NCBI GenBank assembly: GCA_041572575.1
Contig: JBFFSH010000067.1
Coordinates: forward strand, 1-14,260
Reading direction: 5' to 3'
DNA from: Thermodesulfobacteriota bacterium
Lineage (GTDB): Bacteria; Desulfobacterota_D; UBA1144; Nemesobacterales; N074bin48
Length of the DNA stretch: 14,260 nucleotides
This document shows positions 3,001 to 14,260 of this stretch, one piece after another; the stretch's first letter is position 1; every line of letters starts with the position of its first letter. Made by a program: the position numbers.

Positions 3001-6000
3001 CAAAGGCAGGTAATTCACTCAACAGACGACATTGGCAGGACTAAAACAAGCTCAGCAAAGGAGAGGCTAAACAAGCTAAACCCTGAAATCAATATCATTG
3101 AGCATTCAGAGCTTATTTGTGAGCAAAACATAAGGGATATCATAAAAGACTACGATGTAGTAATCGACGGCTCTGATAATTTTGCTACAAGATATATAGT
3201 AAACGACGGATGTTTTTTTGAAAAAAAGACCCTTATTTCCGGCGCGGTACTGCAGTTTGAAGGACAGGTATCGGTGTTTAAACCCCACCTGGGCGGGCCG
3301 TGCTACAGGTGCCTCTTCGCAGAGATTCCACCACAGGGCGTAATCGCGTCGTGCCAAGAGGCAGGAATAATCGGCGCTGTAGCAGGGATTGTGGGAAGCA
3401 TACAGTCGCTTGAAACTATTAAAGAACTCTTAAATATTGGCCAGAGCCTTGACGGCCGCCTTCTTGTGATAAATACCCTTTCCATGGAAATAGATGAGCT
3501 TAAGATCAAAAAGCTTGGTGGATGTAAGCTTTGTGGAAGTTCACCTTCGATAGATAAAGTAAATGGTCACCCGCAAGGCCCATGCAGTGGTAATTCGTAA
3601 CATTTTCCCCGGGTTTATTCTACATTATATAAACATTATACTTTGTTAATCTTGACAAAGCCTCGCTGTTTAAGATAATACTCTGCCAACCCATAGATAA
3701 ACATTTAATTAGCCGGAATTTTTCAATATGGAAGCACTTTATATAAGTACACTTAACATTCTGCCGGAGCTAAGTCTCATCATAGCCGGACTCATACTGC
3801 TCCTTGCAGGCCCATTTCTTAAAAAAGAAGAAAATGACGCAGGATTTTTCATAACATTAATTGGAATTCTTATAGCTTTTTATTTAAATTTTACAAGATT
3901 TACGACTCCTGCAGAAGCCTTTGCAGGCTCACTTTCTCTTGACAGTTTTACAGCCTATTTTAATTCTATCTTTCTCATAGGTTCTCTAATATCCGTTACA
4001 TTTTCCAGGGATTATCTTAAAACCCACGATCTTAAGGCTAGCGAATTTTATACCCTCATACTGTTTGCTACATCAGGGATGATGTTTTTAGGCTCTGCCA
4101 GAGAGTTTATGAGCCTGTTTCTTAGCTTTGAAATAATGTCTATTTCAGTATATGTGCTAACAGCACTTAACAGGAATTCACTTAAATCAACCGAGGCAGG
4201 TATTAAATATCTCATTCTTGGCGGATTTTCCTCTGCGATCCTTCTTTTTGGAATAGCTTTAGTATATGGAGCCACAGGATCAATAGTCTTTAGCGACATA
4301 TCAGCAGCCTTTGATTATGGAAACCCAATGCTTATAGTCGGCGTTGGACTCATATTTATAGGATTTTTATTCAAGATAGGCGCTTTTCCTCTGCACCAGT
4401 GGGTACCGGATATATATGAAGGCGCTCCTGTAACAGTTACTGGGTTTATGTCTGTAGGGGTAAAGGCTGCGGCTTTTGCCGTACTGCTCAGGGTATTTCT
4501 TGAAGCATTTCCAACATTTGAGGCAAACTGGCTAATGGCCCTTTGGGTTGTTGCTGTGTTTACCATGACAATTGGAAACGTATCAGCCCTTATGCAGAAC
4601 AATCTAAAACGCCTGCTTGCTTTTTCTAGTATTGCTCATGCGGGCTATGCAATCATTGGCATAGCGTCTATGATAGGTAACAGGGAATATGCATTTGCAA
4701 GCGTAAACTACTACCTTTTAGCATATATGTTTATGAACCTGGGCGCTTTTGGTATTCTTGCTTATCTATCCAAAAAAGACAGTGAGTGTGAGACATTTGA
4801 TCAGATAGCAGGGCTCTGGGATAAAAAGCCTGCCATAGCCACGGCGCTTACGATCTTTATGGTATCTCTTGCGGGTATTCCGCCATTTCTTGGATTTTTT
4901 GCAAAATACAAGATTTTTCTCTCAGCCATTGAAGCAGATCTCATCTGGCTTGCTGTAATAGGAATAATAAACAGTGTTATATCTGCCTATTATTACCTAA
5001 AAGTAATAGTCTATATGTATATGAAAGAAAACAAGTTTGACTTCCCTCAGCTAAAAATAGCATCTTCGGTGGCCATTGTGCTGCTAAGCCTTATAAATGT
5101 GTTTCTTGGTATTTTCCCCCTACACACCTGGGATTTAGCCCTAAAAGCCGCAAATTCCATCCCATTTTAGGTAATAACTTAATAAATAACATTATTTATT
5201 ATTTACAACTTGCCTAAATTGTTATAAATTATATATTTACCAATTCAAAAATACAATTTAAGGAATTACTTTAAGACAAGATGGGTGTAAAAATTAAAGA
5301 ACCGGAATATAAATATTTCATATTGAGGGAAATATTTGCCTCTATTTTCTTAACCCTTGGTTTGTTCTCAGTAATCAGCCTGTTTTTATACACTTCAGGC
5401 TCGGGGGCCGACCTCAAAAGCTCAGTGGGTACGGTTGGGCTTTATATATCCAACAAGCTTGGAATCTACTTTGGTCTATCTTCTTTCATTTTCCCAATAA
5501 TAATGATCTATACAAGCTTTGTAGTGTTTAAGAACAAGGATATGCCTCAGCTTTTGAGAAAAGCGATTTCAGGTGGGGTATTTTTAATTGCACTAACAAC
5601 TTTTATAGGACTTGCAAACAGCTCTTCAGAGCTTTTGGGATTTTCTCCTGCTGGGGGATTATTGGGAGCTAAGCTGTCTTCACTTCTAAGGGACCACCTG
5701 GCTGGCACTATCGGTTCTTACCTCATTGTAACTTTATCTTTAATCATAAGTTTAATAGTTCTGATTAATCTAAGCGTAAAAGACCTGTTTAGTTTTATTG
5801 AAAATACATCAGCATTTATAATGAATCTACTATCTATAACAAGCAAAAATGTATACAGCATGGTTCACTCAAGCATAACCAGCAGAGAAACCTCAAAACC
5901 CGTGCTTTTCGATGATTCAACACCTATAGAAAAGGTACTTAATCTGGATGAAATAACATATAAAGAGCCTGTTATAGAACCTGTTAAAGAAAGTATATTT

Positions 6001-12000: not shown

Positions 12001-14260
12001 CCGCATTCATAGGGTGAGAGTTTTATCTTGTCATAGACCTTGTGGCCAAGCAGATGGGAAATAGTGAGAAGAACAGTAGCAAGCCCTCCTGCAATAACAA
12101 TCATTAATAATATAGGTAAGTAGCCCTCCAGCATGGACACTAATGTTAAAAACAAAGCGTTAAAAGTCAAGGTATATATACAATTAATTTTAAAATAATC
12201 GTAATTATTCTAATAATAAACAAAAGCTTCCAATAAATTGTGATTGACGAAGTGATTTGGTTAGATTAAACTTAATACCAAAGTATTACTGTTTACCATT
12301 ATAGATCTCGGGGAGGAGATTGTGATGAAACAAATTATTAAAACTGCTGTATCACTAATCCTTATTTTTGTAATTGGATTTACTACGGGTATTGCTGTAA
12401 ATAAAATGCAGAACATGCATTCCGGGTATCAAGGCAATATCAGCATGGATGCTTTGAGTAAAAACTAATCTTTAATATATTATCTATCTTATTATCTCAA
12501 AATTCAACTATTAAACCTTTTCCATATACAGCCTAATTAATAGATTGTATAGAAACTACGATTTAATTTATTATAAATAGCATCGCAGTGTGTTATAGTA
12601 ATATCATGCCCATCCACCAATATCTTAATGATTAGACTGAACAAATATGAAACTGGACAAATTGATAAACACAATTAAAGAACTTGTTGATAAAGCTGAT
12701 AAACAAATTTACTTTGATAAAAAAGAGCTTTATTTTGAAATCAATGCACCTGAAACCAGATTTTCAATAAGCACCAAACAAGACGGCACACTTTGTATAA
12801 CTATTCATGTAACTGACGGTATTTTCTACAAATTTTACACCGAGAGAGACGGTACACTACTGCTCGAAAAAGGGAGTGTTCCAGACCTTATAGAGAACTT
12901 CGGACTAAATTATATATTTAAACTGTTTGATAATGCCGCACCCGGTATGCTTGAAATTGGCCTTAGAGAAATTGAAAGTAATGATTATATATTTAGACAC
13001 ACTATTAGAGCTGGAAATAAAAATTCTGTAGAGGAAAAACGTAGTCTACACTAACTATAAGCTTGAGAGCGCCTGCTCCTTATCTTCAAATATTTGTAGT
13101 ATAGAATCAAAACCGCTTACTTTAAATATTTGTTTAACATTATCAGAAAGGCTTGTAATGGCGATATTACCACCCTGCTCTTTTATCTTTTTAGTAAGAG
13201 TAAGAAGTGTCCTTAGGCAAGCACTGCTAATGTATTCAACCCCTGAGAAATCAAGCAGTATAGATTTTTCATTTTCTGTAAGTTTTAGCACTCCCTGTTC
13301 AAAATCTGCTGAATTTTGAGAGTCTATTCTGGATTCTGGTTTTAATACCAATACATTGCCAATTTTTTCTTCACCAAGATTCATTGTAATTCCTCTTTAA
13401 CTTTTAGTAATTATGTATAACAAATTGTTATGTAGGTAGCATAAGCATTGCTTCTGCAATATCTGACCTTAGTCTTTCCAGCACATTAGTAACTTCTTGT
13501 GCTATCAGGTCTAATTTCTTTATGAGCTCAATTCTATCTGATAGCCTTTCGACTTCCTTTTCACTGAGAAAAGTAGTGAATAGTGAGCATGTATCCATAA
13601 GACTTACTAATACTACGTCCTTTGGAGATGGAATATCATCACTCATAAGAAGATCGATGATCCTTTTTTTAACCTCTTTTTCCTCTGTGTCATCTATCAT
13701 TGGATAGACCCTTGTACCAATCACCCATAAGAACTTCTTTTCTTCCATTTTAAGAATTTTTTTATCTATGAGCATCTCAATAGCCGAGTCCATTATTTCT
13801 TCACCATAATTGGACAGCTCGGTTAACCAGAAGCGTGTATTGTTATCATTGTTTTCACTGTTTATCTTTTGCAGATATTTATCAAGCATTGCAATACCCG
13901 TAGGAGTAGAATCGGCTACTATTAGTTTTTCAAGATCATTATCAATCCTGTTTTTTAAACCTAGATCCATAAGCACTGCACCTGCCATAGCATAGTTAAG
14001 CGTCATAAGGTCTATGTTTGCAAGCTCTCCCGATTCGTCATCGAGTAACAACAACAATATATCTTCTGCTAATGTAAGCATTAATTACTCCCAAATATGT
14101 TATGTAACTATAATTATAGGATATTGTCAAGCCCCAGAATTTAGGTCCAGTTTTAAAGTTAGAATTTGTTAACATTTTGTCAGTGAGTTGGAGTGAAAGT
14201 TTGTTCATAGTTCGTGGTTTTTTTGTCTTGTATTAAAGCTTTTGGAGCAGGCGGTCTGTA

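Follow-up and report, generated by a model that had tools for sequence, protein, structure and literature searches.

Why genes for the subunits of large complexes stay in operons has long been asked, the candidate reasons being co-regulation, coupled assembly and joint transfer. The question is raised anew by respiratory complex I in a genome from Dadabacteria, an order of uncultured bacteria. The DNA analysed here, a stretch of 14,260 nucleotides at the start of contig JBFFSH010000067.1 (hereafter the window), carries nuoN on one strand and nuoABCD on the other. An initial annotation had described these as two of eight separate loci that encode the single complex I of this genome, in a layout fixed across the order. 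How did a 14-subunit enzyme come to be encoded in this way, and how could the pieces be expressed?

One nuo set in eight units

The 14 nuo genes of this genome form one set that is spread over eight units: nuoABCD, nuoE, nuoF, nuoGH, nuoI, nuoJKL, nuoM and nuoN (see Table 1 for the window). A tblastn search of the whole genome recovered a single copy of the equivalent of every E. coli subunit, each at the place that the initial annotation had named, and non-nuo genes flank each unit inside the contigs, which bears out the eight-locus description. Seven of the 13 junctions are broken (DE, EF, FG, HI, IJ, LM and MN), and AB, BC, CD, GH, JK and KL are kept. Five nuo genes are solitary, and nuoL, nuoM and nuoN lie in three separate places. 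A single operon is typical of 14-subunit complex I without defining it; here there are eight units. The break within nuoF, the halves of which lie on two contigs (C45 and C35), is an assembly gap: the halves overlap by 141 identical bases and are one gene.

The identity of nuoI, earlier said to rest on its NCBIfam name, is now backed by a match above the TIGR01971 cut-off, by eight of eight cluster cysteines in 23/23 sequences and by its grouping in a tree with operon-encoded NuoI. We considered nuoM as the head of an ATP synthase operon and ruled this out, as the downstream genes are queD/folE-like. The porin insert of the lolA–nuoD interval was not seen in 12 related loci (L002–L013).

Table 1. 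Genes and promoter-like sites in the window (positions count from its first nucleotide)
Feature	Position	Strand	Description
tusA-like, cysM, mec/JAB, moeB cluster	1146..3600	+	5′ of nuoN; context only
Promoter-like site of nuoN	3652..3679	+	TTGACA-16-GATAAT; 48 bases 5′ of start; 11/12, best among 35 matches in 9.3 kb
nuoN	3728..5170	+	480 aa; sole nuo gene of its unit; TIGR01770 above cut-off
ftsK	5281..7512	+	NCBIfam FtsK match; passenger neighbour, 3′ of nuoN in 16/23 relatives
lolA	7509..8165	+	TIGR00547 above cut-off
Alginate-export-family porin	8185..9510	-	PF13372; variable insert, lolA/nuoD interval
nuoD	9558..10781	-	407 aa; TIGR01962 above cut-off; quinone-site motifs in 23/23 relatives
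nuoC	10781..11305	-	174 aa, separate from nuoD; TIGR01961 above cut-off
nuoB	11302..11787	-	161 aa; TIGR01957 above cut-off; four N2 cysteines in 24/24
nuoA	11778..12134	-	118 aa, ATG at 12134; NCBIfam NuoA match begins at that residue
Promoter-like site of nuoABCD	12143..12170	-	TTGACT-16-TAACAT; 8 bases before ATG

Layout across the order

We sampled 23 of the 100 other genomes of the order, from families f2 to f8, favouring contiguous assemblies and a wide spread. In no genome of the 23 was any of the seven broken junctions intact, and the multigene units were kept whole: nuoGH and nuoJKL in 23/23, and nuoABCD in 22/23 (the other being cut by a contig end). Among genomes assembled as a single contig, the nuo units occupied 7–8 places in 10 of 10 (10-kb threshold), so the scattering first reported for closed genomes stands. 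An assembly or binning artefact might be suspected in an assembly of 137 contigs with a contig end inside nuoF. However, this reading is refuted by the closed genomes, the units are flanked by other genes within contigs, and the window is covered, with identical sequence, by an independent run, leaving an artefact with virtually no probability.

The claim that the layout is fixed across the order holds for the break points, which are the same in 23/23, and fails for the addresses and neighbours of the units. For example, nuoI lies directly 3′ of nuoD in one genome (G020), nuoF lies upstream of nuoE in another (G012), and nuoN and nuoC are 500 kb apart in a third (G089). Similarly, “single complex I” is accurate for this genome, with its one copy of each gene, and cannot be extended to the order: a second, intact complex I-like operon was found in 10 of 101 genomes, and is present in 10 of the 15 genomes of family f2. 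Of the 96 order genomes in which nuoF was matched at all, 93 had a single match.

Predicted class of the enzyme

All 14 subunits are encoded, with NuoA, NuoG and NuoJ matching their families below the curated cut-offs, and NuoF, NuoL and NuoM recognized via tblastn and Pfam. Using residue numbers read on the E. coli sequences, we found that all 32 tested Fe–S ligands (NuoB, E, G and I) and the charged proton-path residues of NuoA, H, K, L, M and N are invariant in 23–24 sequences. In NuoN, the equivalents of E133, K217, K247 and K395 are present in 24/24, and the motifs of NuoF (Fe–S ligands and NADH site), like those of the NuoD quinone site, occur in 23/23. Because the catalytic residues are invariant, the scattered genes look as if they encode an ordinary 14-subunit NADH:quinone oxidoreductase with a short NuoG.

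Compared with clade C complex I, as given in part of the survey by Spero et al. (2015; PMC4453560), the predicted enzyme has the same 14 subunits, separate NuoC and NuoD, a 160-aa NuoE and the tested catalytic residues. NuoG, at 531 aa and with the N7 cysteines, is also short (mean for clade C, 493 aa). The short NuoG and unfused NuoC and NuoD are traits of that clade, to be read beside trees that included no clade-labelled references and in which the sister groups vary by subunit.

Predicted promoters and regulation

Unit-specific bipartite motifs, evaluated by leaving one family out at a time, outperformed 100 shuffles in 127 of the 190 regions upstream of units and failed in 63. The motifs are consensus matches, and they indicate that each of the eight units has its own conserved, predicted sigma70-type promoter 5–55 bases before the start. 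Such a promoter-like site is present even where the upstream gene runs in the same direction. Only this cross-genome footprint counts as promoter evidence: a generic scan of the window returned 35 sites against 29.8 expected, which is not above chance. The nuoN footprint recurs in relatives and has been lost in four g19 genomes. Upstream of nuoA, the −35 box is TTGACA in 22/22 relatives and the first in-frame start codon lies 6–10 bases past the −10 box in 21/22; the predicted nuoA mRNA looks leaderless. RpoD has the usual recognition helices, judged by motif.

A regulon that replaces the operon should show an operator common to the scattered units. We found none, either as a 6–8-mer or as a palindromic dyad beyond A/T tracts, in a search that a weak or distant site could escape. 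Of four RNA runs, taken as contigs, X1 has DNA-like coverage, even over genes and gaps, and X7, X8 and X11 are patchy, with a depth of 2–7.

Neighbouring genes and the gene-order background

The odd neighbours of the nuo units had been described as conserved, in 88, 71 and 66% of genomes for three pairs. The rates in our sample are close to these: nuoE–DUF4147 is kept in 21/23, nuoN–ftsK in 16/23, SSF–nuoI in 13/22 and nth–nuoJ in 19/23 (59–91%). However, they are no higher than background, as 311 of 367 adjacent ortholog pairs are kept in the sister order and 225 of 274 in the 66% of genome G029 that was compared (82–85%). Because gene order in this phylum is nearly frozen, conservation of the neighbours carries no special signal, and they are passengers.

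Could nuoN–ftsK, nuoE–DUF4147–dnaB and SSF–nuoI still be operons under selection, linking respiration with division, replication or cell-wall recycling? Their retention in most sampled genomes would fit, as would the apparent read-through of nuoN from cysM–mec in the four g19 genomes that lack its promoter. However, co-oriented pairs in general are kept at 270/308 and 202/225 in two comparisons, which the nuo pairs do not exceed; the neighbours of nuoF, nuoG and nuoM differ between families; and nuoI, nuoJ and nuoN have promoter-like sites of their own behind co-oriented genes. We consider such coupling highly improbable. In the sister order, cysM–mec also lies about 2 kb from ftsK, with nuoN absent there.

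Genome-wide operon collapse was ruled out, as 39 of 39 informational E. coli pairs are adjacent in this genome and most core operons are intact; of the other scored pairs, 51/77 are adjacent. The further splits listed in the initial annotation were also recovered, pheS/pheT and sucC/sucD being apart in 5/5 further genomes, and carA/carB and the three tat genes in this one. Because the sister order has the pheS/T, carA/B and tat splits too, these are older than the order. The sister-order genome G111 has 78 of the scored pairs adjacent; 77 of them are also neighbours in this genome, no pair having been broken on this branch, and the two genomes have 24 splits in common. The nuo breaks do not coincide with wider ancestral gaps (medians of 4–22 bases at broken and 1–26 at kept junctions).

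A second, intact operon and the sister order

The second operon has the order A-BC-D-H-I-J-K-L-M-N, an 11-gene type with fused NuoBC and no NuoE, F or G. This is the gene content of 11-subunit complex I-like enzymes, which likewise lack the NADH module in the portion of Moparthi and Hagerhall (2011; PMC3144371) considered here; CD and BCD are the only fusions described in that portion, whereas the operon here combines a NuoB–NuoC fusion with a separate NuoD.

An intact operon of the NuoBC type is also the only complex I found in the sister order (f9), which is described in part of PMC8115339 as pelagic and streamlined to about 1 Mb. NuoE, F and G were not found in 7/7 f9 genomes, and the nuoF family was found in 0/19. 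The f2 and f9 copies are sisters in 7/7 trees (0.77–1.0), and the NuoBC fusion is common to both. The operon occupies the same site in G007 and f9, a site shared in only one of three f2 genomes examined. In this genome, the flanks of that site are 11 bases apart on contig C58. In the one sister-order genome read whole, the nuoGH site is empty, with MFS–tat and gyrB 2 bases apart, and the nuoI site is empty too; no trace of the scattered-type set was detected in G111. Such empty sites in both orders point to a pair of ancestral complexes that were lost reciprocally, as judged from these genome comparisons. Alone, empty sites cannot tell loss from insertion.

Origin of the scattered set

The order forms one clade in 10/10 subunit trees (0.99–1.0), and families f4 and f6 recur in 9/10. 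In combination, we infer with a probability of about 0.7 that the operon of an ordinary complex I broke once, at seven of 13 junctions, early in Dadabacteria, that each piece has its own promoter, and that the scattered set has been inherited vertically since. The class ancestor would have carried the 14-subunit operon plus the 11-gene operon. The break-up would date to the stem of the class and belong to one episode with the pheS/T, carA/B and tat splits. Most of the order would then have lost the intact operon and the pelagic sister order the scattered set, with part of f2 keeping both. The pieces would be transcribed constitutively and independently, and the complex would assemble from separately made subunits, with promoter strength and the turnover of unused subunits setting the stoichiometry. 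Together, the predicted promoters of the units and the lost second operon would supply a mechanism, where the initial annotation had offered none. More speculatively, the breaks may have been tolerated thanks to redundancy with the second operon.

Alternatively, for the same enzyme and promoters, scattering was confined to the stem of this order, where an intact operon, either inherited or gained once the pelagic order had split off, broke and its pieces entered existing gene strings. The lack of a scattered-type trace in G111 and of nuoF in the 19 f9 genomes agrees with this, empty sites could be pre-insertion states, and the break points have been seen in this order only. However, it demands seven breaks of one operon where 0/78 other scored pairs broke, and the streamlining of the sister order favours loss. 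We regard this origin as rather unlikely.

The deep sister groups differ by subunit, NuoH grouping with Gemmatimonadota/Acidobacteriota (0.87) and NuoL and NuoM with a Desulfobacterota MAG (0.89–0.95), with the others unresolved. The set could then be a mosaic, its pieces lying apart because they came from different donors by separate transfers that replaced parts of an older operon; mixed complex I ancestry is described for Aquificae in part of PMC3879981. This is improbable, as the best outgroup matches of all 14 subunits fall in one pool of operon-encoded enzymes, the ancestral order is intact within ABCD, GH and JKL, and the part of PMC4453560 used here reports that recombination between complex I clades is rare. 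The outgroup pool was chosen by NuoD similarity, and NuoL and NuoM are missing from many of its truncated loci. A single early break-up followed by vertical inheritance remains our preferred reading.

Comparison with other split complex I sets

Scattered nuo genes occur in Anaplasmataceae (Wolbachia, Ehrlichia) and in Aquifex, which are repeat-rich endosymbionts or show general operon loss and have JKLMN as one block; in the genome described here, gene order is nearly frozen and the core operons are intact. Wolbachia carries its nuo genes at six or seven loci, with nuoE, nuoF and nuoI each alone and nuoG and nuoH as a pair. The split sets of Bdellovibrionota resemble the one described here in that one working complex is encoded in several places and conserved along the lineage; there, nuoAHJKLMN form one block. 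In Peredibacter, a split set stands alongside an intact operon, as in f2. In four partly split outgroup genomes that we checked, nuoL, nuoM and nuoN are in one cluster, and a count over 68 outgroup loci found the genes at the seven broken junctions next to each other in 39/40, 38/39, 36/40, 37/38, 37/37, 33/33 and 17/17. The clade C survey, in the part used here, found nuo genes colocalised in 86% of genomes and split in 14% (PMC4453560), in contrast to the eight units here.

Split complex I is already known; a set of eight pieces in which L, M and N are all separated is an extreme case. New here are the predicted promoters of each unit, the predicted leaderless nuoA, the finding of no shared operator and the second operon with its NuoBC fusion. 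By titles and the starts of abstracts, the literature on complex I or NADH dehydrogenase in Dadabacteria holds no account of this layout; more fragmented sets may be listed in supplementary figures such as PMC4758237 Fig. S2 and PMC12361115 Fig. S4. The paper on Dadabacteria genomes mentions neither “complex I” nor “NADH” in its main text, and a recent survey, by the part of it used here, left out Candidatus genomes (PMC12361115). Searches for scattered nuo genes in Wolbachia or Ignavibacterium, for the pheS/pheT split and for split operons returned nothing relevant.

Implications

A wider account of these observations is possible, which we put forward tentatively and at less than even odds. 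Dadabacteria would have begun with two complex I systems, and the NuoBC-fusion operon would have given the slack for the eight-piece break-up. Plain sigma70 promoters, with no common regulator, would have rescued each piece, in an arrangement since stable across a free-living order. A 14-subunit membrane machine could then do without co-transcription and coupled translation for most neighbours, L, M and N among them. In f2 cells, a single NADH module may be shared by two membrane arms, and the complex of pelagic Dadabacteria would work without an NADH module.

An eight-piece nuo set in a free-living lineage of nearly frozen gene order is a natural test of operon retention, as it marks the dispensable junctions and the kept ones. 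Family f2, where the two systems, scattered and intact, coexist in a cell, offers an internal control for expression and stoichiometry. Annotation based on gene clusters will record complex I as missing from these genomes.

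Break Points of the Scattered Complex I

NuoD in the window has its closest relatives (77–83% identity) among Candidatus Dadabacteria, Thermodesulfobacteriota and Deltaproteobacteria, and the next-best matches fall below 60%. Searches with the E. coli subunits recovered one copy of each nuo subunit in this genome (G000), in the eight places given by the initial annotation and always flanked by genes unrelated to nuo. The nuoF gene is a single gene interrupted by a contig end, and its halves overlap by 141 bases. The window also holds a gene row resembling a sulfur-carrier cysteine synthesis cluster, which we take to be of the CysO/CysM/Mec/MoeZ type. 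Both window ends show loose ends and raised depth in contigs, which fits repeats at contig ends.

The phylum sample comprised 120 genomes, 101 from the same order (families f1–f8) and 19 from the sister order (f9, genomes of ~1 Mb), which we infer from their size to be the streamlined pelagic clades described in the accessible part of PMC8115339. We surveyed 23 relatives (f2–f8), taking loci with 1.5-kb flanks. None of the seven broken junctions was seen intact among them, and ABCD, GH and JKL are kept together throughout (one ABCD is cut by a contig end). In 68 outgroup loci, genes at the junctions broken here are adjacent in 90–100% of scorable cases. Four families contributed 10 single-contig genomes, and in all 10 the units occupy 7–8 places spread over 0.9–1.7 Mb. 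Of the layout described as fixed across the order, the break points hold, but the addresses vary: nuoI directly follows nuoD in G020 and retains its own promoter motif, nuoF lies upstream of nuoE in G012, and the neighbors of nuoF, nuoG and nuoM differ from family to family. In G007 (f2), seven units are present but searches did not recover the genome's own nuoI of the scattered type, reflecting either an assembly gap (the genome is 93% complete) or reliance on the nuoI of a second operon.

Neighbors and Other Split Operons

The unusual neighbors are indeed retained among the relatives (nuoE with the glycerate kinase gene DUF4147 in 21/23, nth with nuoJ in 19/23, nuoN with ftsK in 16/23, and the SSF transporter gene with nuoI in 13/22). 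They are no special signal against the background, however, as 311 of the 367 ortholog pairs that adjoin in G000 keep their adjacency in the sister-order genome G111, and 225 of 274 do so in G029 (66% of that genome compared). The nuo neighbors are passengers. G000 has a 606-aa ORF that matches AccA and may encode a fused carboxyltransferase; in families f4–f7 this ORF is found downstream of nuoI. A 211-aa protein of G000 that matches no Pfam family adjoins dnaB and DUF4147, and family f6 shares this arrangement.

Among 150 E. coli operon pairs sought in G000, 90 are adjacent, 26 split, 33 not scorable and one lies at contig ends; the 26 overstate true breakage because some of the pairs occur specifically in E. 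coli. None of the 39 informational pairs is split, 26 of the 77 others are, and 7 of 13 nuo junctions are broken. As first noted, pheS/pheT and sucC/sucD are split likewise (apart in 5/5 further genomes). In G111, pheS/T, carA/B and tat are split as well.

A Second, Intact Complex I-Like Operon

Three f2 genomes (G007, G008 and G009) and five f9 genomes carry an intact 11-gene operon (A-BC-D-H-I-J-K-L-M-N) with fused NuoB-NuoC and separate NuoD, at 22–58% identity to the scattered set. Matches to the fused NuoBC occur in 10/15 f2 and 18/19 f9 genomes; among the other 86 genomes of the order only G062 matches, with an ordinary B and C pair separated by stops. The initial description of a single complex I is therefore correct for G000 and not for the whole order. 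We detected nuoF in 96/101 genomes of the order and in 0/19 f9 genomes; no NuoEFG was found in f9, where the second operon is the only complex I found. Neither sucA/sucB nor sucD was found in G111.

In 7/7 trees the f2 copies group as sisters of those from f9. In G007 and f9 the operon sits between gltA and the same small uncharacterized gene, which precedes it (no NCBIfam match at E 1e-25); in G000, gltA and this small gene lie 11 bases apart, forming the empty site. In G008 and G009 it instead adjoins 2-oxoacid:ferredoxin oxidoreductase-like genes, recognized by sequence start. Two ORFs between nuoJ and nuoK in G009 look, by their sequence starts, like an IS200/IS605-type transposase and a resolvase, suggesting an operon under interruption. 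A third kind of nuo-like cluster (M-N-A-B), in a single f3 genome, is unrelated to both sets in trees.

Descent and Timing of the Break-Up

Fe-S ligands, NADH-site and quinone-site motifs and membrane-arm charged residues are invariant in 23–24 sequences. NuoG has 531 residues with the N7 cysteines, like short-NuoG clade C in the accessible part of PMC4453560. The order forms one clade in 10/10 subunit trees (support 0.99–1.0) and the same families recur, indicating that the pieces were inherited together though unlinked. The deep sister groups of H differ from those of L/M, so an old mosaic origin of the scattered pieces keeps a small probability.

In G111, MFS-tat lies directly against gyrB (these flank nuoGH in G065), and SSF directly against the gene found past nuoI and accD/A in genomes of the order with the scattered set. 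G000 and G111 have 102 scored pairs in common: 77 adjoin in the two genomes alike, 24 are split in both, and one pair differs, being broken in G111. It is unlikely that nuo broke seven times on a branch where no other scored pair did, which would put the break-up in the stem of the class, with reciprocal loss afterwards (probability about 0.7).

Promoters and Predicted Expression

A conserved two-part sigma70-type motif, in a version of its own for each unit, lies upstream of every unit. Trained on other families, the motifs outscore 100 shuffles per region in 127/190 upstream regions (A 20/23, E 19/24, F 14/24, G 14/24, I 12/23, J 18/24, M 17/24, N 13/24). With promoters masked, nothing recurs across units beyond A/T tracts. 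Only 6–10 bases separate the -10 box from the first in-frame nuoA start codon in 21/22 relatives, too few to accommodate a ribosome-binding site, and the nuoA mRNA is predicted to be leaderless across the order. At kept junctions in G000, genes overlap or lie ≤10 bases apart; in the outgroup, gaps are of similar size at both kinds of junction, kept and broken, and so give no evidence of selection for particular gene pairs.

On the simplest reading, eight constitutive promoters would drive the units and the complex would assemble from separately made subunits. Gene order is reportedly not essential for complex I assembly in E. coli. Besides RpoD, six further ORFs of G000 have a primary-type sigma70 region 4 helix, two of them cut by contig ends; the nuo promoters, which differ from one another, could thus be recognized by several paralogous sigma factors.

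Features of the window and related loci (contigs of G000 unless stated)
Feature	Location	Strand	Remark
tusA-like, cysM, mec/JAB, moeB	window 1146-3600		in a row
nuoN	window	+	followed by ftsK-lolA
nuoABCD	window	-	converges on nuoN-ftsK-lolA, 4.4 kb apart
nuoN promoter-like site	window 3652-3679	+	best consensus match in 9.3 kb
nuoABCD promoter-like site	window 12170-12143	-	
Predicted leaderless nuoA start region	window 12134-12170	-	
Loose ends	window 1-150, 14100-14260		
nuoA unit motif			TTGACA with TAAccT
nuoN unit motif			TTGACA with CATACT
nuoJ unit motif			TTGACT with TATAAT
nuoE and nuoI unit motifs			TG before -10 box
RpoD	C17:14782		
Six sigma70-type ORFs	C4:41932, C33:5819, C48:167, C51:8437, C38:2, C49:2		
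AccA-matching ORF	C8:4692-6512		
211-aa protein	C113:253-888		
Empty site (gltA, small gene)	C58:14115-15847		
Second operon loci	L119-L134		G007:C7, G008:C78, G009:C26, G111:C4, other f9 genomes
Two ORFs in second operon	L129:14861-17061		G009:C26
M-N-A-B cluster	L132		G017:C98:1-2965

Relation to Known Split Sets

Wolbachia has six or seven nuo loci. In the accessible parts of earlier studies, 86% of the genomes that encode complex I have its genes colocalized (PMC4453560), two or three dispersed nuo clusters are common (PMC3144371), most clades include split sets (PMC12361115), AHJKLMN stay one block in Bdellovibrionota (PMC13147790), and cyanobacterial ndh genes form several groups (PMC4758237). 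We found no account of the nuo layout in literature on Dadabacteria complex I or NADH dehydrogenase, including the accessible part of PMC8115339. The scattered layout is real, an extreme and newly described form of a nuo scattering already known; with it come a specific model of how the units are expressed and a second complex that was not expected.
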